Source: a virus
Direction: 5' to 3' (one strand)
UHGV virus genome: UHGV-0131363
DNA length: 21,991 nt
A model generated the notes under the pieces. It did not search any database and was not told the origin of the DNA. It saw nothing but the letters and a program-made list of their open reading frames with translations. The translations under genes were made by a program, and so were the position numbers. This document shows positions 1,652 through 14,383 of this stretch, one piece after another (the first letter of the stretch is position 1; the number at the start of each line of letters is the position of its first letter).

Positions 1652-2761
1652 TTAGATTTCACGTTTATGCTGAGAAATAAGTTCGCCAGCAGTACCAACG
1701 ATAACATGTAGAGCTTCAGTCTTGCCATCCCATGCTTTCAGAACATTACGCTGGCTATCAACGATAGCTGCAACTTCATAACGTGATGAACGCATTTTCA
1801 TATCATTGTAATCAGTTGGAACAGATACAACATCTCGTGGGTGGACACGAACTTTCAGGATTGTATCACCTGAGAAGCTACGAACATAATCCCAAGCACC
1901 AACATGAAGACCTTGAGAGCAAGTCACGTTACGGTTATTATCAACCATCCAACGTGGCATCTCTACAATGTTACCCAAATCGTTAGGAACTTTGTAGGTG
2001 TGGGAGTCAACCAGCTTACCTTCACGAGTAGAGACTTTCTTCCAACCAATGATGTAGCCTTCTCCATCAATTTCAACATCAAGGTGAGATACAAATCCCC
2101 AAAGTTGTTCTACAGAATCTTTAGATGGGTTTTCCATCAGTTTTTCGAAGAACATTACAAGTCGTTCAAAACCTTTATCGCCAGTTTTCATCATGTGAAG
2201 AATACGGTCAACCAGAGTAGAACGCATCTCAACAGCACCGTAGAATAGCTTGTCACCTTTGATTGTGATAGCACCCTGAGTGAAGTTTTCGATAGACTTA
2301 CGAATGTTCATCAGTTCAAAGGCTTTCTTGAACTCACCTTTCACAACATGAACTACAATCTCTTGATAGTTCGGATGAGTAGACTCAACAATTTCAGATT
2401 CTGAACCATAAGTCATAATTACAGAATCACCAGTAATCATGTACTCAATCTTGTCATCTTTCTGCATAGCTTCGTGCAGTTTATTTACTGGAGCTTTCTG
2501 TACAGCGTCTTTAACTACCTTTTCAACTGGTTTTCCAGCTTTCTTCTTAAAGGTCTTAGCAACTTGTTTCAAAGTCTTCGTAGCTGGTGTAGAAGTTGCC
2601 TTCTTATTCCCTTTTAAGGTTGCTTCATGACGCTCTACAGCACGACCGACTGAACGGGTTGAAGTATTAAATTTCTGTGCAATAGCTGTTTTAGTCAGCT
2701 TACCTTCTTTAACCAGTTTGTAAATTTCTGCGTCAATCTGTGCTTTAGTTTTAGTAGTCAT
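1652..2761 (-). CDS. rIIB: rIIB protein (T4 rIIB-like)
   Basis: 369 aa, with C-terminal region VHPRDVVSVPTDYNDMKMR and LVDRILHMMKTGDKGFE...ENPSKDSVEQLW resembling T4 rIIB. Lies immediately downstream of rIIA in the same orientation, as in T4. Confidence 0.8.
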   Translation of the reverse strand: MTTKTKAQIDAEIYKLVKEGKLTKTAIAQKFNTSTRSVGRAVERHEATLKGNKKATSTPATKTLKQVAKTFKKKAGKPVEKVVKDAVQKAPVNKLHEAMQKDDKIEYMITGDSVIMTYGSESEIVESTHPNYQEIVVHVVKGEFKKAFELMNIRKSIENFTQGAITIKGDKLFYGAVEMRSTLVDRILHMMKTGDKGFERLVMFFEKLMENPSKDSVEQLWGFVSHLDVEIDGEGYIIGWKKVSTREGKLVDSHTYKVPNDLGNIVEMPRWMVDNNRNVTCSQGLHVGAWDYVRSFSGDTILKVRVHPRDVVSVPTDYNDMKMRSSRYEVAAIVDSQRNVLKAWDGKTEALHVIVGTAGELISQHKREI

Positions 2762-2805
2762 CTTATTACTCTCTCTTGTTAGTTAATAAATCATTTTGTG
2801 ATGCT

Positions 2806-2835
2806 ATTTTAAGGGGCTTTGAAGCCCCTTGTCAA
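2806..2835 (-). promoter_or_regulatory. candidate sigma70-type promoter for rIIB (-35 TTGACA, 18-nt spacer, -10 TAAAAT) with a 7-bp hairpin in the spacer
   Basis: Minus strand reads TTGACA (plus tgtcaa 2830-2835), an 18-nt spacer, then TAAAAT (plus atttta 2806-2811). The spacer contains the inverted repeat aaggggc/gcccctt (2811-2817 and 2824-2830). Sits in the rIIA-rIIB intergenic region about 40 nt upstream of the rIIB ATG. Confidence 0.45.
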
Positions 2836-2840
2836 ACACT

Positions 2841-5207
2841 TTAATCGTAAATTGTAGTCCCTTCTGGAACACATTTTACATCAAAACCTAAGAACTTACT
2901 CACTTCGATGGGTGACACTTTATTCCAATCTAAATGAGAAAGCAAGAAGTTTTCTTGTTTTCTTTTTGAAAGATAGTTTGCCACCTTAATAACCATACGG
3001 TCACCAGCTTTCTTAATTTTCTTGTAAAGCTTTGTATCGTTGTCAAGACAGTCTTTCAAAGTTTTCAATACACTAATGGTATAAGTGTATGCAAATGGTG
3101 CAGCAACGTATTGGATTTTACCGAACATTGCCTCTACAGCCTCTTCATTTCCTTCTAGGAAGATAGTTTTGTTTGTATCCCTTGAATAACAATACCCGCG
3201 AGAAATCTTCCTGTTATTAAACGTAAAGTTTCTGGCAATAATCCAACTGCTTGTAAGGTCAAGGACACCATTCATATAGATACGCGTCATATATCTGTTA
3301 TGGTTAATCCAGTGAACATCAGTTAAGCTGTCGTTCAAGAGTTTCTCATCTACTTCAATCCAATCTTCTGGTATCTTTTTCCAATTTGCTTTTCGGAAAA
3401 CATAGACTGTCTTACCTGTAACATTAGCAACTGACTTAGCTACATCTTCTGGAGATGAGCAAAAACATTCACCATCAACTGTGTCACCAATTGCCTTAAT
3501 GTAAAGCTGAGGTTCTTCAATTGTGTCTAAGTCCTCTGACACCTCTTTGTAGGAGGCTACACCTTCTGCTGGAACAGCTTTCCAGAGTTTTACAACACCT
3601 CTTACAGCTTCTTTACGCTGGTAATGGTGTTCCTTATCAGACATTTTCACAATCTTTAACAAGCTTTTATCAAGTTTGTGCAGATTGATTAAGTCATCTA
3701 ACTCTTTTTCAGTCGAGAATACAAAGACAATACCATTGTATCTGTGAAACAGACTTGACTCACTGGCATAGTCTCGACATGCACCACGCAAGATTTGGTT
3801 GCGTCCTACAGTCTTCTCAGTACCATTTTTATTGCGACGGTCATTTATAACAAACAAAAACTGTTCAATTTGGCTTTTACGCATTGCGCCAAAGATATTG
3901 AACATACTTGCCTCTTGAGTGTAGGAAAGTGCTGTTGCACGAATCTTACTCTCTAAAGAGTTGAACTTGACATAAGCAACTGGGTCATAAAGATAATCTA
4001 CTTTAGGGATGTTGTTTCCGTTCCTATCAACCTTAATATTACCTTTACCGTCACGTTCATAAATGACTGAGCCGTCTTCTGCGTAGATAATTCCACGACG
4101 AATGTTTAGTAATTCTTCTTCCAGAGAATCAAGCTTAACGCCTCCCCACTCTAACTTTGGACACACAGCATTAAACATCTCTCGTGAGTTCAAACGTAAC
4201 TCAGCATAAGCCTGTGCAGCATCCATGAGTGTAGGTTGACTGTTAACTTTCTTGATAACATCCTTTGTAATTGCTTCAGTTATCTTTTTAGTAGCCTCAA
4301 TGATAACATTTTTTGTCGTGTCATTCATCTGCAATGCTTCACGAGAAGCTGCAATAGCGACTGAACCAATAGGCATGTAGATGTTTACAAGGTCTACGCT
4401 CCTACGGAAAAATTCTGGCAATACTTTGAAGAAATCATCACCAAGTAATGCTTCCATGTTAACAGGGTAGGCAATGTTACCCATCACCACATTAAACTCT
4501 GTCCTGTTATCACTAGAACGCCAGCTGTGCTTATGAATCATGGCATCATAAACACCTTCTTCACGGGCAATGACGTTCATATCTGCTAATACATCGTCGT
4601 ACTCAATATTACTTTCTGGTTTTACAGTGAAGTATGAGTACACATTCCCAGCTTCTTCAAAGAACTTTGAGATACGGTGGTCAGCAACTGCCACACGTAC
4701 AGCTAAACCATTAGGTTCTTTTGTTGGGTTAGTTGTCAGCTTAGTTACTTGAGGGATACCATTCTCAAGATAAACAGAGTACTTATTAACAACACCATCA
4801 ACATAGCTAGATACTGTGAATGACTGAGCAATTGCAAATGGTGACTTTGAGCCGATACCCATTGCACCAATGTAGTCATTAGAGTCATTCTTCGTAGAAG
4901 CTCCATAGTTTAGGTACAAACTCATAACTTTATCATGAGTCAATCCAGTTCCAAAATCACGAACTTCGAAGTAAGGCTCAAAACGAGTAGGTAAATGCAC
5001 ATGGAATGGGATGTTCTCTTTTCCAGCCTCTTTCTGAGCATCTACTGCGTTACATGACAGTTCACGAATCACTGCCCTTTCTTTAAAGGTATATACACCA
5101 GAACTCAAAAGGCTGAACATTTCAGGTGTCATTGTAATCTGTGCTTGAGACGTCTCTAAAGAAGTTGAACTCTTAATCACTTCTGCGTGGTCGTTTACCA
5201 TGCGCAT
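2841..5207 (-). CDS. rIIA: rIIA protein (T4 rIIA-like, GHKL-type ATPase fold at N-terminus)
   Basis: 788 aa. N-terminal EMFSLLSSGVYTFKERAVIRELSCNAVDAQ and DFGTGLT...GAMGIGSKSPF match the Bergerat ATPase N-box and G-box pattern of T4 rIIA. RBS GAGGA upstream of the ATG at 5207. Confidence 0.85.
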   Translation of the reverse strand: MRMVNDHAEVIKSSTSLETSQAQITMTPEMFSLLSSGVYTFKERAVIRELSCNAVDAQKEAGKENIPFHVHLPTRFEPYFEVRDFGTGLTHDKVMSLYLNYGASTKNDSNDYIGAMGIGSKSPFAIAQSFTVSSYVDGVVNKYSVYLENGIPQVTKLTTNPTKEPNGLAVRVAVADHRISKFFEEAGNVYSYFTVKPESNIEYDDVLADMNVIAREEGVYDAMIHKHSWRSSDNRTEFNVVMGNIAYPVNMEALLGDDFFKVLPEFFRRSVDLVNIYMPIGSVAIAASREALQMNDTTKNVIIEATKKITEAITKDVIKKVNSQPTLMDAAQAYAELRLNSREMFNAVCPKLEWGGVKLDSLEEELLNIRRGIIYAEDGSVIYERDGKGNIKVDRNGNNIPKVDYLYDPVAYVKFNSLESKIRATALSYTQEASMFNIFGAMRKSQIEQFLFVINDRRNKNGTEKTVGRNQILRGACRDYASESSLFHRYNGIVFVFSTEKELDDLINLHKLDKSLLKIVKMSDKEHHYQRKEAVRGVVKLWKAVPAEGVASYKEVSEDLDTIEEPQLYIKAIGDTVDGECFCSSPEDVAKSVANVTGKTVYVFRKANWKKIPEDWIEVDEKLLNDSLTDVHWINHNRYMTRIYMNGVLDLTSSWIIARNFTFNNRKISRGYCYSRDTNKTIFLEGNEEAVEAMFGKIQYVAAPFAYTYTISVLKTLKDCLDNDTKLYKKIKKAGDRMVIKVANYLSKRKQENFLLSHLDWNKVSPIEVSKFLGFDVKCVPEGTTIYD

Positions 5208-5771: not shown

Positions 5772-5799
5772 ATCATATACTTTTAAAGCTGCTTGTCAA
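5772..5799 (-). promoter_or_regulatory. candidate sigma70-type promoter (-35 TTGACA, 16-nt spacer, -10 TATGAT) overlapping the 3' end of the Nampt-family gene
   Basis: Minus strand reads TTGACA (plus tgtcaa 5794-5799), a 16-nt spacer, then TATGAT (plus atcata 5772-5777). The predicted start site falls inside the terminator hairpin, so transcripts from here would bypass it and read into the 111-aa gene, the small zinc-finger ORF and rIIA. Confidence 0.3.
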
Positions 5800-7564
5800 T
5801 ATTATTTCGAATATCACCAAGAGTTGTGTAGCCGAACTGCTCAGAGTCGCTAAAGACTAGACGTAAAGCACAAGCTGGATGTTCAAGTGCATCTGCAAAG
5901 CTCTGGAACCCATAGCCATCTACAGCTTTCAGATTTTCACCATCCCACATAGGTGCTACACCACCAAAAGCAGACTTCTTAACACCACTATCTGTTTTAG
6001 GGTCTTTTGCAAGCATAATCTCTTTACCACCAATGCTTGCAAGGGTTGCTTTGACAGCAAATGCAAAGGTGTCACGAGTCATGTACTGGTAAGTGTAAGA
6101 ACCTACACCAAACACTACGTTAGAGCTTGCAAAACCCATTTCATACAAACGCTTCAGTATTTCATTTGCACGTTCCAACGTGATAGAGTCGCCATAAATA
6201 AGTCCAATATGCTCATCCAGTACTTTAAAGCCTTTAGAGTTAATAGTTCCCCCAAAGATGTTGTACAGTGTCTTAATAGCTCCATCAATCTCAGCTACAG
6301 GACGTGTTACAACGTTTGCAGAACCAACCATATAAGCATTTTTCAACATCACTGTATCAGCAACTTCAAAGTCTTCTCTGTCAACAACCATCTCGTAGCC
6401 TTCTGACAGTAGCCATCCAGCAATACCATAGTTGATGTTCTCAAGCTTCATGTTCAGAACAGCATTCAACATTGTGTCACTGGCTTCCAGCTTGCTTAGG
6501 TGCTCGTAATAAGCCTTCTTAGCACATTCTAAGTGGATTGCTTTATAACCTGTGACAATATGTACAGGGTCTCCAGAGTCAGGACGAATTACCAGTTTAC
6601 CGTCACGTCCCATAATCTCTTTGCGAAGTGCTGGTAAAATTTCTGACACAGTTCTCCAGAAGTTATAAGTGTCTGAAACAACACTTGCAATACCAGTTGG
6701 GTAAGTTTCTGTTAAGAAACGACGGAAGGTTTGTAACTCACCTTTAAAGCGTCTTTCTTCTTCAATCAACTCATTACCACCTTCCCAAGCAATGTTTGCA
6801 CACATTACAGAGTGCTCAGTGGCTGGTACAGAGCTACCAATATCAGAGATTGGGTAAGACTGCCCATAAATGCGTTTAGCCGTGTATACAGCAGGGAAGC
6901 TATCAGTTCCTTTAAAGCTGGTTAAGTGACCTACAGCATTAAATGCGTCATCAGTAAAGCCTGACATGCCACGCATAGCAAAGTCATGGCACTGATAGGG
7001 CAGATGCAAGTCGTTGTCACAAGTAAGGTCAGCCCACTTCTTACAGATGCGTTTGTAATGCAATGCAATAGTTGCAATGGTACAAGCCTTCCAAATCTCA
7101 GCAGAGAAAGCATCTTCCAGATAACCTGCTACCCAATGGAAACCTGAAACAGTGTTCTGGAAAACAATCATTGGGACACGCATAGGGACAACTGTGCCTT
7201 CTTCTACAGCGTATACTTCAACTGGTAGATAACCTAAGTCGTGAAGTGCTTCCCAATGCTCTCTACCGATAGCATCTTTACCCAGAACACCATTCATGAC
7301 TTCTAAGATTTCGTCAATTGCTTCTTTTTTATCACGTTCAAAGAAAGTGGCATTCCAGTGGTCTATCAAGTAATCTTTAACAAAACGTTGAATACCAAAA
7401 GCTACTACACCATCAATTGCTAAGGGGCTGTTAAACCATTTATCACTGCGTGGTGTCAGGTTCAACATAAGATATTGCGTAGCATCTGGATACTGATATA
7501 TATGTGATGCCTTGTAAGCATCTGCATTAAGACCTGCTGGTACTGCGTAAAGTGACTTACTCAT
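5783..7564 (-). CDS. nadV: nicotinamide phosphoribosyltransferase-family protein (Nampt/NadV-like); candidate Namat (nicotinamide ADP-ribose transferase) of a NARP1 NAD+ reconstitution pathway
   Basis: 593 aa. N-terminal NADAYKASHIYQYP (Nampt DSYK motif), HDFAMRGMSGF...HLTSFKGTDS...SVPATEHS, VVSDTYNFW...LVIRPDSGDP and GLIYGDSIT...VVFGVGSYTYQ follow the Nampt-family motif order. About 100 aa longer than canonical Nampt. Located 1 gene away from a Prs-family gene. Confidence 0.9.
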   Translation of the reverse strand: MSKSLYAVPAGLNADAYKASHIYQYPDATQYLMLNLTPRSDKWFNSPLAIDGVVAFGIQRFVKDYLIDHWNATFFERDKKEAIDEILEVMNGVLGKDAIGREHWEALHDLGYLPVEVYAVEEGTVVPMRVPMIVFQNTVSGFHWVAGYLEDAFSAEIWKACTIATIALHYKRICKKWADLTCDNDLHLPYQCHDFAMRGMSGFTDDAFNAVGHLTSFKGTDSFPAVYTAKRIYGQSYPISDIGSSVPATEHSVMCANIAWEGGNELIEEERRFKGELQTFRRFLTETYPTGIASVVSDTYNFWRTVSEILPALRKEIMGRDGKLVIRPDSGDPVHIVTGYKAIHLECAKKAYYEHLSKLEASDTMLNAVLNMKLENINYGIAGWLLSEGYEMVVDREDFEVADTVMLKNAYMVGSANVVTRPVAEIDGAIKTLYNIFGGTINSKGFKVLDEHIGLIYGDSITLERANEILKRLYEMGFASSNVVFGVGSYTYQYMTRDTFAFAVKATLASIGGKEIMLAKDPKTDSGVKKSAFGGVAPMWDGENLKAVDGYGFQSFADALEHPACALRLVFSDSEQFGYTTLGDIRNNIDKQL

Positions 7565-7582: not shown

Positions 7583-8074
7583 TTAGTTATGTCTTGCAAA
7601 CTCACCATGAAGTTCTATTCGCTTTTTAATTACAGCTTCTTTTGCTTCTTCTACCGTTTTAAATCTTCCACAAAAGTATTCTTTATGGTAAAGCATGACT
7701 CTTGCTTTGTAAAGACCTGTTTGTTTACAAAAACTTACACCCTTCACACCAGTTTTATTATTCTTGTATATACCCCTATTCCTCTGATTTTGTGACTTTG
7801 TGCTAAGTCTTAAATTATCCAACTTATTATTAGATTTATCAAGGTCTATGTGGTCTATCTCATATCCACTTGGTATCTCACCTCCAGACATAATCCATGC
7901 AATATTATGTGCATAGTACCTCTTCTTATTTATCTGGACTTGGATATAACCCTTCTTAGACCTTGTGCCAGCCACATTACCAGCAATAGCGGTACTGCAA
8001 AGGGTTACTCTCCAAATTAATAAACCTGTATCTGGTTCATATATTAGGTATCTTTCAAAATAACCCTTATTCAT
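7583..8074 (-). CDS. free-standing HNH homing endonuclease with C-terminal AP2-type DNA-binding domain
   Basis: 163 aa. HNH motif GYEIDHIDLDKSNNKLDNLRLSTKSQNQRN and AP2-like segment GVKGVSFCKQTGLYKARVMLYHKEYFCGRFKTVEEAKEAV. Inserted between the Prs-family and Nampt-family genes. Confidence 0.75.
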   Translation of the reverse strand: MNKGYFERYLIYEPDTGLLIWRVTLCSTAIAGNVAGTRSKKGYIQVQINKKRYYAHNIAWIMSGGEIPSGYEIDHIDLDKSNNKLDNLRLSTKSQNQRNRGIYKNNKTGVKGVSFCKQTGLYKARVMLYHKEYFCGRFKTVEEAKEAVIKKRIELHGEFARHN

Positions 8075-8082
8075 ACTGTTAC

Positions 8083-8979
8083 CTAATCAATGGTTGCTAC
8101 AGTCACTTGACCGTAATGTGTTAAGCCACGGTCTTTAGCTTCACCTAAAGTGTTTGTAGTGTAGATATGGTCAATACCGTTGTCAAGTAAGTTTTCAACA
8201 CCTTTAGAGAAAATACCATGAGTTACATAGAGTTCCACACGTTTTGCACCTGCTTCACGTAGGTGTTTAGCTGCCTCTACGAAGGTTCGACCACCATCAC
8301 AGATATCATCAAGAATCATGACAGTTTTATCGGTCAAATCAACATCGTCAAGGATTCGCATACCAGTGATTTCTCCAGTCTTAAGATTGCGAACCTTAGA
8401 CATTGTGATATATGGTTTATCTACCTCTTTAGCGGTCTCTGCAACCTTCTTAGCAGCACCTGCATCTGGGGCTACTAAGTAATCAACCAGTGGGTCATTT
8501 GCATAGTGGACTGCAATCTCCTTTTGAGGAATACTCTGGAAGCAGTTAAACAGGTTATCTGGTACATAGCTGTGAGGGTCAACTGCACAGACTGCGCCAA
8601 ATCCCATTGCATTAATCTGTTTAGCAAAAACCTTTAAAGCTGCTGCGTCACCTTTAAACATGTGACGGTCATATCGTGCATTTGGTAAGTAGTAAAAGAT
8701 GACAGTCTTTAAAGCATAATCATGAGGAATTAAATCATCAATTGCTTCTTTAGCAAGTGCCACAGCAAATAATGTGTCTTTGTCATAACCCTTTACAATC
8801 ATAATCACGTTGTTGATGGATGATGTAGCATAAGCAGTAAAATCAACAAACTCTGGTGAAAAGTGTCCACCAATCTCACCAGAAGGGAATTGGACGATGT
8901 TAAACTCTTCTTCATGAGTCCCCTTAGCTGGTGAATGAACTGTAACACGGATAGATGTTTTCATAGTTTTCTCTCTCAA
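8083..8979 (-). CDS. prs: ribose-phosphate pyrophosphokinase-family protein (Prs-like); candidate Adps (ADP-ribose pyrophosphokinase) of a NARP1 NAD+ reconstitution pathway
   Basis: 298 aa. PRPP-synthetase motifs YLPNARYDRH (compare E. coli Prs YFGYARQDRR), VAPDAGAAKK, and the PRTase-type binding loop VMILDDICDGGRTF...GAKRVELYVTHGIFS. ATGA overlap with the upstream gene. Confidence 0.85.
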   Translation of the reverse strand: MREKTMKTSIRVTVHSPAKGTHEEEFNIVQFPSGEIGGHFSPEFVDFTAYATSSINNVIMIVKGYDKDTLFAVALAKEAIDDLIPHDYALKTVIFYYLPNARYDRHMFKGDAAALKVFAKQINAMGFGAVCAVDPHSYVPDNLFNCFQSIPQKEIAVHYANDPLVDYLVAPDAGAAKKVAETAKEVDKPYITMSKVRNLKTGEITGMRILDDVDLTDKTVMILDDICDGGRTFVEAAKHLREAGAKRVELYVTHGIFSKGVENLLDNGIDHIYTTNTLGEAKDRGLTHYGQVTVATID

Positions 8980-9254
8980 TCAAAAGTTACGTTTGTTACT
9001 GCCATTGCAGATTTGCATTTTACAGGGTCTACAACGTGGTAAAGTACACTACAGTTACCTGTGCTGTCTGGTACAGGCTTTACCCATTGCTGCTTTATAG
9101 TTGGCTCTCCTAAGTCTTTGTAAGAACCATCTGTAAAGTTGTTTACCATCTCAAGTGCAATTGGTTCTGGAACATGACCACGTATCATGTACATCTCACA
9201 ACCATTACCTCCTTCACTGACTAATGGTAAAATCTCCCACTTTTCTTTAGCCAT
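8976..9254 (-). CDS. hypothetical protein (92 aa)
   Basis: ORF translationally coupled to neighbours (ATGA overlap downstream, 8-nt overlap upstream). No recognisable motif. Confidence 0.5.
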   Translation of the reverse strand: MAKEKWEILPLVSEGGNGCEMYMIRGHVPEPIALEMVNNFTDGSYKDLGEPTIKQQWVKPVPDSTGNCSVLYHVVDPVKCKSAMAVTNVTFD

Positions 9255-9762
9255 TATAAGTTGCCCTATAAACTGTCTCGAACTTCAACAGGAGAGATAT
9301 TGCCAAATCTGTATAGTTGTTGTCAAGCACATCTGGCATATTATTTTTGATATATTTCTCTTGCTCTTCATAGGTCATCTTAGGGATACTTAGGAGGCTA
9401 TCTCCTTGCTTCTGGTTATCAGCTTTAGTTTGGATAAACCAGTTTGCACAGTGATGTTCACCACCTTTTGTAACAGGTTTGTGATGACCTAATGTAAATG
9501 TTTGCTTACCAGTATACCTGCAAAGATTGTTCAGTGTTGCAATGGTGTTCTTCACAACACACCATTCATACAGGTTATCTATTGTGTAGTGTGGGTAATA
9601 ACGGACAAGTGCTCTTTCACGGAAGTTATCACGATTCCAAAGAACCATGTGATTAGAATTTGAAGGGTCATATTTGTGGGAGTCTATAAACTCTTGACGC
9701 TCATCAAAGCTGAGTCTTAGAACTGACATTGCAACCGAACGTTTCAGGTTTGACAGGTACAT
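9247..9762 (-). CDS. hypothetical protein with possible His-Me finger (HNH-like) nuclease motif
   Basis: 171 aa. Segment LGHHKPVTKGGEHHCANWFIQTKADNQKQG resembles the HH...GG...N...N pattern of HNH/His-Me finger nucleases but lacks the zinc-binding cysteines. RBS GGAGG upstream of the ATG at 9762. Confidence 0.5.
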   Translation of the reverse strand: MYLSNLKRSVAMSVLRLSFDERQEFIDSHKYDPSNSNHMVLWNRDNFRERALVRYYPHYTIDNLYEWCVVKNTIATLNNLCRYTGKQTFTLGHHKPVTKGGEHHCANWFIQTKADNQKQGDSLLSIPKMTYEEQEKYIKNNMPDVLDNNYTDLAISLLLKFETVYRATYNG

Positions 9763-9771
9763 TTTACCTCC

Positions 9772-9801
9772 AAAATAAAAAGGGAACCTTTACAGTTCCC
9801 C
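9772..9801 (-). terminator. rho-independent terminator followed directly by the RBS of the 171-aa gene
   Basis: Minus-strand RNA forms GGGGAAC-uguaaag-GUUCCCU (6-7 bp, plus-strand arms 9782-9787 and 9795-9800) followed by UUUUUAUUUU, then GGAGG and the ATG. Confidence 0.55.
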
Positions 9802-9813
9802 TATAGTATCTGT

Positions 9814-10134
9814 TTACTGAGCTACTTTCAAGATGCTTGTGAATGAAATCTCACTCTCATCCATAAACTCTTTTGCTTTTCCAGTAACTTTTACAAAGTT
9901 ATCTAGGCAGATAATCTTCTTATCTTTCTTGCTGTAAGTTAGCTTAACCTTTTCAATATCTTTCTTAGAGCTTTTCTCTTCATTAAAGAGTTTTACAGCT
10001 TCTTTGAATGGGAGGTATGAGCCATCATCATCGCTAATAAAACCTGTACCACAATAGTAGAAGTTGTATTCTTTAGCCATAAACTGGCACAGTACGAAAA
10101 TCTGTAATTTACGAGTGTTATAAACTTTGCTCAT
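9814..10134 (-). CDS. hypothetical protein (106 aa)
   Basis: ORF in a tightly packed same-strand array. No recognisable motif. Confidence 0.5.
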   Translation of the reverse strand: MSKVYNTRKLQIFVLCQFMAKEYNFYYCGTGFISDDDGSYLPFKEAVKLFNEEKSSKKDIEKVKLTYSKKDKKIICLDNFVKVTGKAKEFMDESEISFTSILKVAQ

Positions 10135-10136
10135 GG

Positions 10137-10418
10137 TTATTTAACCTTCTTGTTACGTTTACGGTTACGAGCTTTCTTAGCTGCTCGTTTAATAGCTGCT
10201 GCACCAGATTGGCGGTGGGCTTGTTTCTTACCACCTTTACCACGTCCTACGTAGATGTAAGGCTGCTGTTCAATTTGGCTTGTAAGAACTTGTGCAACTA
10301 CTGAAGCATCTACACCAACCTGCTTTCCAGTCATAGAAATGATTGCTGCTGCTTTTGCCAGTGCCTTCAAGAAGCCAGCTTTCATATTACCTAAAATTCC
10401 CATTTTAGTCTCTCTCAT
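10137..10418 (-). CDS. hypothetical small basic protein (Lys/Arg-rich C-terminus KRAAKKARNRKRNKKVK)
   Basis: 93-aa ORF. The ATG at 10418 overlaps the upstream stop (TAATG). An alternative start at 10403 has a GAGAGAGA RBS. The C-terminal basic tail suggests nucleic-acid binding. Confidence 0.5.
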   Translation of the reverse strand: MRETKMGILGNMKAGFLKALAKAAAIISMTGKQVGVDASVVAQVLTSQIEQQPYIYVGRGKGGKKQAHRQSGAAAIKRAAKKARNRKRNKKVK

Positions 10419-10738
10419 TAAAGTTTAATACAGAACTTATGAAGTTCTTCTTCAGTAACTGTGACAACTTTATCATCAACACGTAAGTTTGTCTCGTAAA
10501 AATTTGAGAAATGTGCTTTGTGTTTTACTTTAAATACTCCAGCAGCCTCAATACATTTCAATGCTTCCATACCAGTGGAGTCAAACAGACTTTTAGTATA
10601 GACTTTCCACTCTTCAATGGTTTCTGGATTTACTTTGTAACTACCAAATAGTGACATGTTACAGTACGACATAACAAACTCACCGCGTTTGAATCCACCG
10701 CTACTCTGCTCTCCATTGACAGTCACCTTGCCAGCCAT
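10418..10738 (-). CDS. hypothetical protein (start placed at internal ATG 10738; ORF-track start 10819 is inside nrdG)
   Basis: The ORF-track version overlaps nrdG by 119 nt. The ATG at 10738 has GGAG 8 nt upstream and gives a 106-aa product beginning MAGKVTVNGEQ. An ATG at 10672 is an alternative. Confidence 0.45.
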   Translation of the reverse strand: MAGKVTVNGEQSSGGFKRGEFVMSYCNMSLFGSYKVNPETIEEWKVYTKSLFDSTGMEALKCIEAAGVFKVKHKAHFSNFYETNLRVDDKVVTVTEEELHKFCIKL

Positions 10739-11186
10739 ATTCTTTTCTCCACAAGTTTTGGTTGTCTGAACCACGATATGGTTTATTCGTTGGTTTAGAA
10801 GCATCATACTTACCATCAATCACCACGTCAACATATTTCATCACATCCAAGTGGATTTTTTCGTGCAGTTGAAAACCTGTCCAAAGCCATATAGACTTTT
10901 CTGGATAAACAGTTTTAATACGCTTGCATATGTTGGTAACCTCTTGAATATTTCTATCATCCAGAGGCTCTCCACCGAGTATTGACAACCCACTGATGGC
11001 CTCATCATCCATTAACTTAATGATACCGTAGAGGTTTGCATAAGTAAACTCTTTACCAGCATTAAACTTCCAAGACTCCCTGTTAAAGCAGCCTTCACAG
11101 TGATGCTTACAACCAGCTACGAAGAGGCTTACACGAACCCCTTCACCATTAGCTGTGTCAAATGGTCGAATCTCCATGTAATTCAT
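10701..11186 (-). CDS. nrdG: anaerobic ribonucleotide reductase activating protein NrdG (radical SAM)
   Basis: 161 aa. Radical-SAM cluster motif CKHHCEGC near the N-terminus; SIWLWTGF, KYVDVVIDGKY and RGSDNQNLW match T4/E. coli NrdG. Located downstream of nrdD. Confidence 0.9.
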   Translation of the reverse strand: MNYMEIRPFDTANGEGVRVSLFVAGCKHHCEGCFNRESWKFNAGKEFTYANLYGIIKLMDDEAISGLSILGGEPLDDRNIQEVTNICKRIKTVYPEKSIWLWTGFQLHEKIHLDVMKYVDVVIDGKYDASKPTNKPYRGSDNQNLWRKEYGWQGDCQWRAE

Positions 11187-11195
11187 CTAGTTACC

Positions 11196-11495
11196 TCACC
11201 AATACATATAAGTGTTCTTAGCAGCTTTCTTCGGAGACTTACTGTCAATGTCAAAGTCTTCATCTAAGAAGGATGTCTTAGAAAGCTGCCTTATTTGTGT
11301 TCTTGTAAGACGTTTAGTAGCCCTCTTAATCTCTCTACAAGGCTGACTTGTAAAGTCATAAGAGCCACCTTTTCTGGACATCATATCAGAATGGAAGTAG
11401 ACATCTGAAGCATTTTCTCTGTTACGTACCTCATTTCTCCACTCATAAAGTCCATGAACGTTCTTTAAACCTTTTCTTCGAATTGTTTTACTCAT
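11196..11495 (-). CDS. hypothetical protein (99 aa)
   Basis: ORF in the same-strand array between nrdD and nrdG. No recognisable motif. Confidence 0.5.
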   Translation of the reverse strand: MSKTIRRKGLKNVHGLYEWRNEVRNRENASDVYFHSDMMSRKGGSYDFTSQPCREIKRATKRLTRTQIRQLSKTSFLDEDFDIDSKSPKKAAKNTYMYW

Positions 11496-12238: not shown

Positions 12239-14383
12239 TTACATAGAAATTCTGTCACGAATCTCAGCGATTTTTGCATCATTCATTCGAGATTCACCTT
12301 TAATCTTAGTCCACCCAAGATATCCGCACACCCTGTTAATCACAGAGATGTCGTGTGAATGGCAAACCTCACATTCTTCAACATCAGCCTTTGGTCTGTT
12401 ACCACAATGTTCACAGATTGCTAAGTCAAAGTTAAGTCCCTGATAAAAACCCTTCAACATCCCTCTGGTAATACAACTTTTAAGTGCTGGCAAGTTTTCT
12501 GGGTTAGCTACCCTTACATACTGGATTCTGCCGCCTCTACAGATATGGAAGAATGGCTCTTCTAAGTCCTGCTTCTCAAATGGTGAGATGTCTGCTGCAA
12601 CATTCATATGGAAACTGTTTGTAAAGTATTCCTTGTCAGAGACACCTTTAATGACGCCAAACATATCTCTGAACTGTTTTAACTGAGTTCCACAAAGTGA
12701 TTCTGCTGGAGTGCCATATACCGCATACAAGAAGCCATCTTCGTTCTTAAACTCTTCAGTTTTCATGTTGATGTATTCCAGAACATCATATGCAAAACTA
12801 TAGCCTCCAACTTCATGAAGTCGTTTACCTTCAGCAAGAACAGATAGCTCATCAAGCGCAGTAACCCCAAAAGAAGCTGTGAAGGACTTCACAATATCCC
12901 AACCAACCCTGTCAGTAGGCTTCTTAGTTCCTTTGTACAGACCACCTTGTGTAAATGCAAGAGGGTTAGAACTTGCTGGCATATTGGCAATCATTTCATA
13001 GCGTTTCTTGTGGAAGCTGCGAATCATCTCTAGGTACTTATCAAGCTCTTTCCAGAAATCTAAACCATTCTCTTTAGAATACTGGTAAATCATTGGTAAG
13101 TTCAAAGATACAGCACCAATGTTAGCACGACCAACGTAGAACTCTTCCCCATCCTCGTTAAGATATGGAGATAAGAAGGCTCTACAACCCATCGGCGAGA
13201 TTACCTTGCCAGAACGCTCAAAAGCTTCTGCTACAGCACCATGACCAGATACACTTAAGAAATCTGGATACATCGCTTTAGAGCAACACTCTATAGCTTT
13301 ACTGTACAGGTGGCCTTGACAGATATTCTCATTATGTCTCTTCTGGTCATAAATATAAACCAGTTTAGGGAATACAACAGGTTTCTTGCTCTTACCTTGT
13401 CCATTCATACGAACATCTAGGAGAGTACTTGCAATCATATATTGCAGTCGGTTATCTTCATTAGACATATCTGAGTCAAGTAACCCGAATGTCAAAGTTG
13501 TAAATGCAAAATCCCCACGGCTACAAGGTACGGTATTTAGTTTCATTTCAAGTGACTGGAAACCTTGAGTTAGTTCAATCTGTAGCTGCTCCATGACATA
13601 ATTGTGGTAATGTTCTTTAGGAATACCATAAGATGCTGCTTTCTCAGCATGATAGCGTAGAGACTTCTTAGCATACGGTACAAGTACCTTATCAATCTCT
13701 GCTAAAGTAAAGCCACCAAATTGCTGTGCAGTTGCTGAAAGAACTACGTCTCCAATAACCTGTAAGGCCGACAGCGCAGACTTTGGTTCACAATATTCGA
13801 TGCCAGACATTTCAAAGCCACCTTTCAGGACTTTACCAATGTCAAACAGGCAACAGTTGATACCACCAAAGATTAGGTCTCTTAAATCATGGATATAGAT
13901 AAACCCTTTTTCAATGGCTTCAAGTTCCTCTGGTGTTAAATGGTACTGTTTAAAGATTTCTTTAGTCAGATAACCACGAATAATTGAACCTTTTGTAGAA
14001 ATTAAACTGCTGTCAAAGTTAGCATTCTCTCTGTCACCTAAGAAGAGTGTATCTTTGGTCTTCTGGTAGAGTTCATCCCAATTTTGAGCAACTTCTTTAC
14101 GGTAATTTCTATATGTTGAGTAAGACTCATAAATCTCGTGATTAACTTCTGCCAAAGCACCTTCAACAATACTGTGAATATCATTTACCGAGATAAGCAA
14201 ATTATTCTGCTTAGCGGACTTTACCAGAATCCTCATAAATGCTGACTCAAGAGCTTGAGTAACATCTGGTGGAAGCTCTTTATAACCAACCCTATTAGCT
14301 GACTTTGTGACTGCTGCTAAAACTTTTTTGATATCAGGTTCTTCGAGTGAGCCATTCTTTTTAATAATCTGTACTTTGTTCAT
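12239..14383 (-). CDS. nrdD: anaerobic ribonucleoside-triphosphate reductase NrdD (glycyl-radical enzyme)
   Basis: 714 aa. C-terminal zinc ribbon CEHCG...CEVCHSH and glycyl-radical motif RVCGYLG. N-terminal ATP-cone-like region. Internal SPMGCRAFLSPY and YGTPAESLC resemble NrdD active-site regions. Confidence 0.95.
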   Translation of the reverse strand: MNKVQIIKKNGSLEEPDIKKVLAAVTKSANRVGYKELPPDVTQALESAFMRILVKSAKQNNLLISVNDIHSIVEGALAEVNHEIYESYSTYRNYRKEVAQNWDELYQKTKDTLFLGDRENANFDSSLISTKGSIIRGYLTKEIFKQYHLTPEELEAIEKGFIYIHDLRDLIFGGINCCLFDIGKVLKGGFEMSGIEYCEPKSALSALQVIGDVVLSATAQQFGGFTLAEIDKVLVPYAKKSLRYHAEKAASYGIPKEHYHNYVMEQLQIELTQGFQSLEMKLNTVPCSRGDFAFTTLTFGLLDSDMSNEDNRLQYMIASTLLDVRMNGQGKSKKPVVFPKLVYIYDQKRHNENICQGHLYSKAIECCSKAMYPDFLSVSGHGAVAEAFERSGKVISPMGCRAFLSPYLNEDGEEFYVGRANIGAVSLNLPMIYQYSKENGLDFWKELDKYLEMIRSFHKKRYEMIANMPASSNPLAFTQGGLYKGTKKPTDRVGWDIVKSFTASFGVTALDELSVLAEGKRLHEVGGYSFAYDVLEYINMKTEEFKNEDGFLYAVYGTPAESLCGTQLKQFRDMFGVIKGVSDKEYFTNSFHMNVAADISPFEKQDLEEPFFHICRGGRIQYVRVANPENLPALKSCITRGMLKGFYQGLNFDLAICEHCGNRPKADVEECEVCHSHDISVINRVCGYLGWTKIKGESRMNDAKIAEIRDRISM

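Follow-up and report, generated by a model that had tools for sequence, protein, structure and literature searches.

In the virus genome UHGV-0131363, five small genes lie between a pair of NARP1 enzyme genes and nrdG, and the locus raises the question of whether such a block is a source of novel inhibitors of bacterial defence, as a preliminary description had proposed. The window (the whole analyzed stretch of 21,991 nucleotides) comes from a Felixounavirus, a Felix O1-like phage, and not from a T4-like phage as had been assumed. All five ORFs are real and lie on the minus strand: ORF1 (8976..9254, 92 aa, phrog_4726), ORF2 (9247..9762, 171 aa, phrog_3500), ORF3 (9814..10134, 106 aa, phrog_4462), ORF4 (10137..10418, 93 aa, phrog_4425) and ORF5 (10418..10738, 106 aa from its ATG, phrog_5082). 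A 133-aa form of ORF5 ending at 10819 is a TTG extension into nrdG, and a second ATG at 10403 would give an 88-aa ORF4. The same five CDSs are annotated in vB_EcoM-Ro111lw, in Felix O1 (ORF122-126) and in Bas63 (bas63_0074-0078). The flanks were also as described, with nrdG (10701..11186, minus strand) on one side and, on the other, the Prs-like first NARP1 enzyme Adps (8083..8964, minus strand) and the Nampt-like second enzyme Namat (5783..7564, minus strand), which are parted by an HNH-AP2 homing endonuclease gene (7583-8074).

The genes had been presented as one tightly coupled block, and most junctions fit that description. The 5′ end of ORF5 lies inside the 3′ end of nrdG (38-nt overlap), ORF5 and ORF4 share a TAATG, ORF4 and ORF3 are 2 nt apart, ORF2 and the translationally coupled ORF1 overlap by 8 nt, and ORF1 lies 11 nt upstream of Adps. 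The spacer between ORF3 and ORF2, in contrast, is 51 nt long and contains an intrinsic terminator hairpin with a T-run (9780..9802, minus strand). This hairpin is kept in 31/31 related loci, and Yersinia phage P778 has another hairpin and T-run at the same position. Tight coupling therefore does not hold for all five genes; the terminator divides the block into an nrdG-ORF5-ORF4-ORF3 unit, headed by nrdG, and an ORF2-ORF1-Adps-Namat (NARP1) unit.

We compared gene presence and alleles across the 31 related loci. Within allele classes, dN/dS was 0.08 for ORF1, 0.12 for ORF2, 0.045 for ORF3, 0.09 for ORF4 and 0.08-0.32 for ORF5, and the flanking enzymes nrdG, Adps and Namat gave 0.06-0.12. These ratios point to purifying selection on all five ORFs. 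All but one of the five genes are found almost throughout the genus, and ORF2 is present at the same position in every one of the 31 loci. Two divergent alleles are found for each of ORF1, ORF3 and, over its N-terminal half, ORF4, and they reassort among phages that are otherwise ~95% identical; the ORF1 classes lie at 97-100% and 65-71% identity, and the differences between the ORF4 classes are confined to the first ~47 residues (49-57% identity). True hypervariability is limited to ORF5. This gene is missing from 10/31 loci, and its alleles, which fall into at least six classes of 89-125 aa, are 31-98% identical, whereas the flanking nrdG is mostly 87-99% identical (~80% in two loci from outlying genera). 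All ORF5 classes belong to one family, with invariant W44, T48, L60, F69 and EEL..FC.K. The suggested hypervariability thus applies to ORF5 and, in the form of allele replacement, to ORF1, ORF3 and ORF4, but not to ORF2. Nor are the five uniformly conserved core genes with housekeeping functions, the outcome that had been named as fatal to the proposal.

These data also bear on the idea that ORF2 represents a free-standing homing endonuclease in decay, with the other small ORFs as selfish or neutral filler. Real mobile HNH endonucleases do occur in the region, at 7583-8074 in the window and at other places in Bas63. A decaying gene would hardly keep its position in every locus, a dN/dS of 0.12 and a catalytic motif that is unchanged down to 34% identity; moreover, selection is seen on five of five ORFs, and the knockout phenotype of the Bas63 counterpart of ORF2 was complemented (10.1101/2024.10.10.617714). 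The conservation data by themselves largely refute this idea, which we regard as scarcely credible.

That counterpart is gp77 (bas63_0077) of Bas63 (JohannRWettstein). ORF2 is 89% identical to gp77 over 171/171 residues, and all motif residues are kept. The two proteins have the same length, and their genes have the same position and neighbours: the DUF7390 gene on one side and, on the other, the 92-aa gene that precedes Adps and Namat. The published primers confirm that gp77 was the gene tested in the Bas63 work. As judged by sequence and gene order, ORF2 is thus the ortholog of a reported anti-retron gene: the PhageMaP preprint reports that gp77 counters retron Ec67/Eco2, with knockout phage sensitised to Ec67 and plating regained on complementation (10.1101/2024.10.10.617714). 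In the portion of the PhageMaP data consulted, g77 was dispensable on four laboratory hosts and important specifically on Ec67. The effect was modest (10-fold), comes from a single preprint and was measured in Bas63, the only phage for which the phenotype is published, which weakens its transfer to ORF2. Even so, ORF2 most likely protects its phage from Ec67/Eco2. Because of this orthology and the variable neighbours, the proposal of a defence-inhibitor block was partly right, and the block does lie between two validated counter-defence loci; for ORF2, however, the anti-defence role is already published and is not novel.

What kind of protein is ORF2? The preliminary description had noticed a His-Me-finger-like motif, which is real and belongs to ORF2. 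The motif, FTLGH93..GG..N107W..DN116, did not vary in 34 homologs, and H93, N107 and N116 were invariant down to 34% identity. In the AlphaFold2 model (pLDDT 90.8), residues 89-119 (9406..9498, minus strand) form a predicted beta-beta-alpha-metal core, with strands at 89-93 and 108-112 and a helix at 113-119. In a Foldseek search against the PDB, the best 11 matches were all HNH nucleases or HNH domains, although every match was statistically weak (E 0.2-2). The top matches included the Gme HNH nicking endonuclease (4H9D), the HNH domains of Cas9 and IscB, and McrA, and with these ORF2 would share a beta-hairpin followed by a helix, a GG loop, a His at the end of strand 1, an Asn at the start of strand 2 and an Asn in the helix. 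Profile comparisons gave E 2.3e-6 with a PHROG HNH family and E 0.035 with NCBIfam IscB. No curated HNH profile was matched above threshold: the Pfam HNH profile recognised only 2/34 family members, with E values of about 0.009 that fall short of its cut-off; together with the weak fold matches, this counts against the assignment. In many HNH proteins, but not all, CxxC pairs that bind zinc flank the core. In ORF2, the equivalent sites hold no Cys and are unconserved. On these results, ORF2 is a predicted cysteine-less HNH (beta-beta-alpha-metal) protein whose core is enclosed by a helical bundle, and its nuclease activity is putative.

The preprint labels gp77 as GIY-YIG (10.1101/2024.10.10.617714), a label that speaks against an HNH assignment, whereas the evidence obtained here points to HNH. 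With E values up to 1 allowed, GIY-YIG profiles matched none of the 34 family members. The model contains a single beta-hairpin instead of the three-stranded sheet of GIY-YIG nucleases, and the fold matches include no GIY-YIG protein. The distinction changes which catalytic residues should be chosen for mutation.

Cleavage of msDNA was proposed as the mechanism of gp77 (10.1101/2024.10.10.617714). This conflicts with evidence from 2026 that msDNA decay activates Eco2. A further difficulty for an anti-retron role is that Stephanstirmvirinae carry an ORF2 homolog and yet are restricted by Eco2. This restriction would be easier to explain if ORF2 were mainly a nuclease of DNA metabolism, acting in host-DNA breakdown, nucleotide salvage or on replication intermediates, with an indirect effect on the retron. 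Kolesnikvirus and Stephanstirmvirinae have homologs that are 37-51% identical, and the family, which is under purifying selection, spans two subfamilies. Its members always neighbour genes of nucleotide metabolism or replication. In Ounavirinae this is the nrd cluster; in phAPEC8 and KP13-26 the homolog lies directly upstream of a Rep/UvrD-like helicase gene, with nrd genes nearby. The Bas63 data argue in the other direction, as g77 matters specifically on Ec67 and can be lost on the four laboratory hosts. We consider a mainly metabolic role unlikely, though it deserves attention, and prefer an anti-Ec67/Eco2 role for ORF2.

ORF75 of the T5-like phage SP15 has likewise been reported to act against Eco2 and Eco7; it too is a small phage gene, and its mechanism is not known (PMC11555353). 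As this other anti-Eco2 gene maps to the tRNA region of a T5-type phage, we searched the tRNA-rich region of T5, which yielded no homologs of ORF1, ORF2, ORF3 or ORF5.

The operon structure suggests another role for ORF2, shared with ORF1, as accessory genes of NARP1. Past the terminator, both are in one operon with Adps and Namat, and the synteny of ORF2, a small ORF, Prs and Nampt is held in Erwinia phage phiEa21-4 and Yersinia phage P778. Extended NARP1 operons have a precedent in NARP1-AP, where the macro-domain phosphatase Adpp accompanies Adps and Namat; unlike NARP1-AP, the block studied here has no macro domain. Disruption data from Bas63 do not fit an accessory role. On Sir2-HerA, in the part of the PhageMaP tables covered, scores for g79 and g80 fell to about -2 to -3.3, whereas g77 (about +0.8) and g78 (+0.1 to +0.4) stayed fit. 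In addition, the sequence up to 5 kb from four distant NARP1 loci contained no ORF2 homolog, on which basis ORF2 was rejected as a general NARP1 companion; ORF1, too, is missing from distant NARP1 loci. The ORF2 homolog in Stephanstirmvirinae does not adjoin NARP1. ORF1 is deleted in BPS17W1, and in Kolesnikvirus and P778 unrelated genes take its place. A NARP1-accessory function is thus very unlikely, and the two genes are better read as an anti-retron gene followed by a lineage-restricted orphan. An exhaustive search with ORF1 against 1.84 billion representatives returned only its own family; out-of-family matches, to a junk tandem-repeat protein and giant Ig-repeat proteins, were rejected as homologs because their scores were inflated by repetition. 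The phiEa21-4 gene gp112 occupies the same slot as ORF1 and is unrelated to it.

For ORF1, ORF3, ORF4 and ORF5, our searches found no known fold, enzymatic signature or link to known inhibitors. Pfam, NCBIfam and PADLOC scans of all five proteins gave a single match, that of ORF3 to Pfam DUF7390 (PF24116; E 1e-16, 61.7 bits, cut-off 28.4), a family without assigned function. ORF5 had no Pfam, PDB or PADLOC match. PDB sequence or profile matches of ORF1, ORF2, ORF3 and ORF5 were spurious and included repeat-inflated protein A designs. ORF4 combines an amphipathic N-terminal half with the strongly basic C-terminal tail that had been noted before (10140..10253, minus strand): its last 36 residues include 16 K or R and no acidic residue. 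The near-invariant tail, YVGRGKGGKKQAHRxxGAAAIKRAAKKARNRKRNKKxK, is almost identical in both allele classes, and by itself it matches two other small-protein PHROGs (phrog_28305 and phrog_8108).

Could at least one of these four genes be a new direct inhibitor of defence, as originally suggested? All four are small, dispensable and confined to the lineage, and among near-identical phages their alleles are swapped or lost; they also sit within a cluster of validated counter-defence genes. The ORF3 family also shows a weak profile similarity to aRad1, an inhibitor of the aRES NADase (10.64898/2026.01.28.702374), with the ordered motifs x-CGT, F..A and LTY in common (hhalign P 0.0013; 0/150 column shuffles reached the score). 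The hhalign probability was only 16-19% over about 30 columns, however, and ORF3 lacks the residues on which aRad1 function depends (the glycine of the WxEGYxATGQ loop and the YWGC tryptophan) and bears an N-terminal helix instead. An aRad1-type role for ORF3 is therefore not supported, and the same comparison with ORF1 gave nothing. In the PhageMaP data consulted, disruptions of the Bas63 counterparts of all four genes were non-essential in six backgrounds, and no defence-specific fitness drop was seen with Ec67, Sir2-HerA, TerY-P or AVAST4, a result that weighs against direct inhibitors and against the host-interaction reading given below. The preprint names no counter among g74, g75, g76 and g78 (10.1101/2024.10.10.617714), and PADLOC, Pfam and PDB offered no link to an inhibitor. 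A new inhibitor among the four is possible, but we hold it only tentatively. A literature search on Felixounavirus anti-defence, DUF7390, bas63 locus tags and Felix O1 transcriptomics gave nothing directly relevant.

Taken together, the data are best explained by a non-essential mosaic block of two transcription units, in which ORF2 is an HNH-type counter to Ec67/Eco2 and the other four are host-interaction genes; we assign this reading a probability of about 0.65. The block would belong to the arm of a Felix O1-like phage genome that serves nucleotide metabolism and host interaction. ORF2 would act on a nucleic-acid component of Ec67/Eco2, or of the infection that triggers it, and so protect the phage from this abortive-infection system. 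From purifying selection combined with the exchange of divergent alleles, and in ORF5 also loss, we infer that ORF1, ORF3, ORF4 and ORF5 act as binders in host takeover or counter-defence, fitted to targets that vary among hosts. In a bolder version, which we think improbable, the whole stretch from nrdG to rIIB would serve Felixounavirus as an anti-defence island: ORF5, ORF1, ORF3 and ORF4 (through its N-terminal half) would be allele-matched inhibitors directed at immune proteins that vary among hosts, ORF3 would be distant kin to aRad1, and ORF2 would counter Eco2 by a route other than destroying msDNA, because msDNA decay activates Eco2. The comparative map places arms-race-like variation in ORF5 most of all, then in ORF1, ORF3 and the N-terminal half of ORF4, and not in ORF2, and it yields a short, cheap list of alleles for trials against defence libraries. 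Some product names in GenBank and the PhageMaP tables are likely annotation carry-over. No motif or fold backs the 'HNH endonuclease' label on some DUF7390 members, and the same origin is likely for 'RNR activating protein' on ORF5 homologs and 'ribose-phosphate pyrophosphokinase' on ORF1 homologs.

The five small genes lying between nrdG and the Prs-like gene were each located where the preliminary description had placed them, on the minus strand like all genes in the surrounding region: ORF1 (8976-9254, 92 aa), ORF2 (9247-9762, 171 aa), ORF3 (9814-10134, 106 aa), ORF4 (10137-10418, 93 aa) and ORF5 (10418-10738, 106 aa when counted from its ATG). ORF4 has a second ATG, preceded by a better ribosome-binding site, which would give 88 aa. 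The block end of 10819 holds only for a TTG-extended reading of ORF5 that enters nrdG. The region had been labelled T4-like, a label that did not survive comparison: the window matches Felix O1-like phages (Felixounavirus, Ounavirinae) instead. The block matched about 250 such records, and its identity to Escherichia phage vB_EcoM-Ro111lw was 95.7%. Felix O1 (ORF122-126) and the BASEL phage Bas63 (bas63_0074 to 0078, hereafter g74-g78) have these five CDS as well, all annotated there as hypothetical proteins. All five are real genes. Each has a full-length PHROG family of its own, and dN/dS within allele classes was 0.08 for ORF1, 0.12 for ORF2, 0.045 for ORF3, 0.09 for ORF4 and 0.08-0.32 for ORF5, with 0.06, 0.12 and 0.06 for the flanking enzyme genes nrdG, Adps and Namat, respectively. 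The block was also found, with ~92% identity, under the names of unrelated hosts, in GU169904.1, 'Staphylococcus phage SA1' (115195-116993), and in two 'Campylobacter' records, which suggests chimeric or contaminated assemblies.

As judged from sequence correspondence, the anti-defence gene within the block is ORF2, whose role has already been reported through its Bas63 counterpart, gp77. In the PhageMaP preprint (Chen et al., 10.1101/2024.10.10.617714, PMC11482910), a barcoded Bas63 knockout library was challenged with defence systems, and the authors report that 'Gp77 is a counter to Ec67 retron'. Deletion of gp77 lowered plating on Ec67 10-fold, and a plasmid copy restored it. In the part of the pooled fitness data considered here, g77 values were -0.29, -0.63 and -0.51 on Ec67 and approximately +0.8 to +1.4 on S17, MG1655, TerY-P, AVAST type 4 and Sir2-HerA. 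The PhageMaP gene numbers are the GenBank locus tags (65, glutaredoxin; 73, nrdG; 79/80, NARP1; 84/85, rIIA/B), and the gp77 complementation primers encode MYLSNLKRS... and ...VYRATYNG*, the two ends of bas63_0077, which is 89% identical to ORF2 across all 171 residues. Separate evidence indicates that most Felixounavirus species are not restricted by retron Eco2, which is the same as Ec67.

PhageMaP labels gp77 a 'GIY-YIG catalytic domain protein*' (10.1101/2024.10.10.617714, PMC11482910), whereas the sequence and predicted fold of ORF2 point to HNH. The GIY-YIG label is not supported: no member of the ORF2 family (34 homologs) matched a GIY-YIG profile, the model contains a single beta-hairpin, and no GIY-YIG protein was among the fold matches. 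A His-Me-finger-like motif had been noticed in one gene of the block; it is that of ORF2 (H93, N107 and N116). The pattern FTLGH93-P96-GG-H103-N107W108-N116 is invariant in the 34 homologs and represents an H-N-N version of HNH without the zinc cysteines. ORF2 matches a PHROG HNH family (E = 2.3e-6), and Pfam HNH gave a weak match to 2 of the 34 family members. In the AlphaFold2 model, which is confident (pLDDT 90.8, pTM 0.87), short strands 89-93 and 108-112 and helix 113-119 fall exactly on the motif, with a helical bundle around them. When the model was compared with the PDB by Foldseek, the best 11 matches were all HNH nucleases or domains, including the Gme HNH nicking endonuclease and Cas9 HNH, and McrA, IscB and type I-F HNH Cascade ranked lower, although all E-values were weak (0.2-10). 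Taken together, these individually weak lines make HNH the best reading of ORF2. Homologs sharing 37-51% identity are encoded by Kolesnikvirus phages of Erwinia, by Yersinia phage P778 and by Stephanstirmvirinae, for example phAPEC8 and Klebsiella KP13-26.

PhageMaP proposes that gp77 cuts Ec67 msDNA and thereby disarms the retron (10.1101/2024.10.10.617714). This proposal clashes with the current understanding of Eco2. According to a 2026 structural study, the branched msDNA cages the TOPRIM nuclease, and the phage endonuclease DenB starts msDNA decay, so that TOPRIM is released and cuts tRNAs. Because msDNA decay frees TOPRIM, a plain msDNA-degrading nuclease should trigger Eco2 rather than counter it. 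In addition, Stephanstirmvirinae possess an ORF2 homolog and yet are restricted by Eco2 in published data. Our best guess is that the action of ORF2 is directed at nucleic acid: it might destroy the ncRNA or msDNA precursor ahead of complex formation, cut the retron complex without freeing active TOPRIM, or remove a phage-made trigger. As the chief alternative, ORF2 would be a nuclease of DNA metabolism whose anti-retron effect is indirect. This would fit the way it always sits among genes for nrd and replication functions; in phAPEC8 and KP13-26, for instance, its homolog lies immediately upstream of a Rep-like helicase gene. The clash over mechanism goes modestly beyond prior knowledge, as do the assignment of gp77/ORF2 to the HNH fold and, as described below, the division of the operon and the map of alleles.

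The anti-defence locus said to lie beside the block was correctly recognized and is already known: its Prs-like gene is Adps and its Nampt-like gene is Namat. Both belong to NARP1, a pathway of NAD+ reconstitution that was originally defined with Bas63 genes 79-80. Neither ORF2 nor ORF1 seems to be a component of NARP1. In the Sir2-HerA data considered (10.1101/2024.10.10.617714), fitness was about -2 to -3.3 for g79 and g80, about +0.8 for g77 and +0.1 to +0.4 for g78; no ORF2 homolog lay within 5 kb of four distant NARP1 loci; and, in Kolesnikvirus and P778, unrelated genes occupy the position between ORF2 and Adps. In Klebsiella phage KP13-26, a NadR and PnuC pair (1-1973) lies ~2 kb upstream of the ORF2 homolog, placing NAD-related genes close, but not adjacent, to it in a second lineage. 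The NARP1 pair of the window is split by an HNH_3 and AP2-domain homing endonuclease gene (7583-8074, minus), whose presence in ~7 of 31 related loci indicates a mobile insertion. The window rIIA and rIIB genes (1652-5207, minus) correspond to g84 and g85, reported counters of qatABCD with a 10^4-10^5-fold effect (10.1101/2024.10.10.617714). NARP1, gp77 and rIIA/B together make this a neighbourhood rich in counter-defence genes. The window nrdD (12239-14383) is uninterrupted, unlike Bas63 nrdD (46630-49516, joined CDS), which contains an intron-like insertion with a homing endonuclease.

The five genes had been described as tightly coupled, which is true of the junctions within each of two units but not across the block, as a terminator divides ORF3 from ORF2. 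In the 51-nt gap between these genes, a GC-rich hairpin is followed by a T-run (9802-9780, minus), and both were conserved across the 31 related loci compared. At the equivalent place, Yersinia phage P778 carries another hairpin and T-run, which speaks for a conserved function and not merely for inherited sequence. ORF5, ORF4 and ORF3 therefore close the nrdG-containing unit, with a 38-nt nrdG/ORF5 overlap, a common TAATG at ORF5/ORF4 and a 2-nt ORF4-ORF3 gap. ORF2 and ORF1, overlapping by 8 nt, head the second unit, which runs on 11 nt past ORF1 into the Prs-like and Nampt-like genes. Directly 5' of the hairpin (9803-9831, minus), a -10-like hexamer, TACTAT (TATGAT in the other allele background), is conserved at the same place in related loci; it could be the promoter of the ORF2-ORF1-NARP1 unit or a chance match. 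A 259-aa protein call on a metagenomic ENA contig fuses DUF7390 (ORF3) to ORF2; read-through or a frameshift in the spacer that contains the terminator most likely produced this artefact.

The strongly basic C-terminal tail attributed to one gene is the Lys/Arg-rich tail of ORF4, YVGRGKGGKKQAHR..GAAAIKRAAKKARNRKRNKK (10140-10253, minus), which is near-invariant in both allele classes. ORF4 looks like a two-part protein with an exchangeable amphipathic N-terminal half and this fixed tail. The tail alone matches two further small-protein PHROGs, and putative nucleic-acid binding through it is plausible. It contains GRGKGGK, seven residues that also occur in the N-terminal tail of eukaryotic histone H4; this likeness is probably a coincidence. 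ORF1 is an orphan, for which 1.84 billion cluster representatives, searched exhaustively, yielded only its own family and chance hits inflated by repeats. ORF5 had no match to a known family or structure in profile and PDB searches. ORF3 homologs are labelled 'HNH (homing) endonuclease' in GenBank/PhageMaP tables, g74 'RNR class III activating protein*' and g78 'ribose-phosphate pyrophosphokinase*'. Profile and fold searches backed none of these labels, which appear to have been carried over from neighbours or older records.

The Bas63 counterparts of ORF4, ORF3 and ORF1 are 93%, 99% and 99% identical to the window proteins, and at the position of ORF5 Bas63 carries another allele (35% identity). 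In the PhageMaP values considered (10.1101/2024.10.10.617714), disruptions of g74, g75, g76 and g78 scored as non-essential on S17 and MG1655 (mostly positive, with g74 and g76 noisy) and on Ec67, Sir2-HerA, TerY-P and AVAST type 4. The same work describes the entire Bas63 46-66 kb region as non-essential on four laboratory hosts and lists no counter among these four genes. The expectation of novel defence inhibitors is partly supported: one gene, ORF2, is a counter-defence gene but had already been reported, and the other four showed no anti-defence phenotype in the PhageMaP data examined. ORF1, ORF3, ORF4 and ORF5 are real, dispensable, lineage-restricted genes.

The block had also been called hypervariable. 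Comparison of 31 loci from Felixounavirus and the sister genera Mooglevirus and Suspvirus upheld this well for ORF5 and, as allele replacement, for ORF1, ORF3 and ORF4, but not for ORF2, which was present in all 31 (76-99% identity). ORF5 was missing from 10 loci and reduced to a remnant in one. Elsewhere at least six classes could be told apart (31-98% identity, 89-125 aa), all of them members of a single family whose ends are conserved and in which W44, T48, L60, F69 and EEL..FC.K are invariant. ORF1 was present in 30 loci, with a clean deletion in BPS17W1, and had two allele classes (97-100% versus 65-71% identity) and one further sequence at 88%. ORF3 (31/31, truncated in HY02) also had two classes (82-99% versus ~50% identity; 106 and 103 aa), and the two classes of ORF4 (31/31) diverged solely across the first ~47 residues (49-57% identity). 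Allele classes of different genes reassorted independently, and in 100-nt bins the drop in nucleotide identity (90-100% to 60-70%, or to a loss of alignment) coincided exactly with gene borders. This turnover of ORF1, ORF3, ORF4 and ORF5 is consistent with host-interaction roles. Searches of 50,697 phage records agreed with the locus comparison, as matches numbered 231 for ORF1, 266 for ORF3, 107 for ORF5, 142 for ORF4, whose tail was masked by the low-complexity filter, and 429 for ORF2, a higher count because ORF2 extends to other groups. Just outside the block, a 99-aa ORF between nrdG and a 131-aa ORF (11196-11495, minus; phrog_1774, weak DUF5499 match) was carried by some relatives and cleanly missing from others, and its site is a second presence/absence slot.
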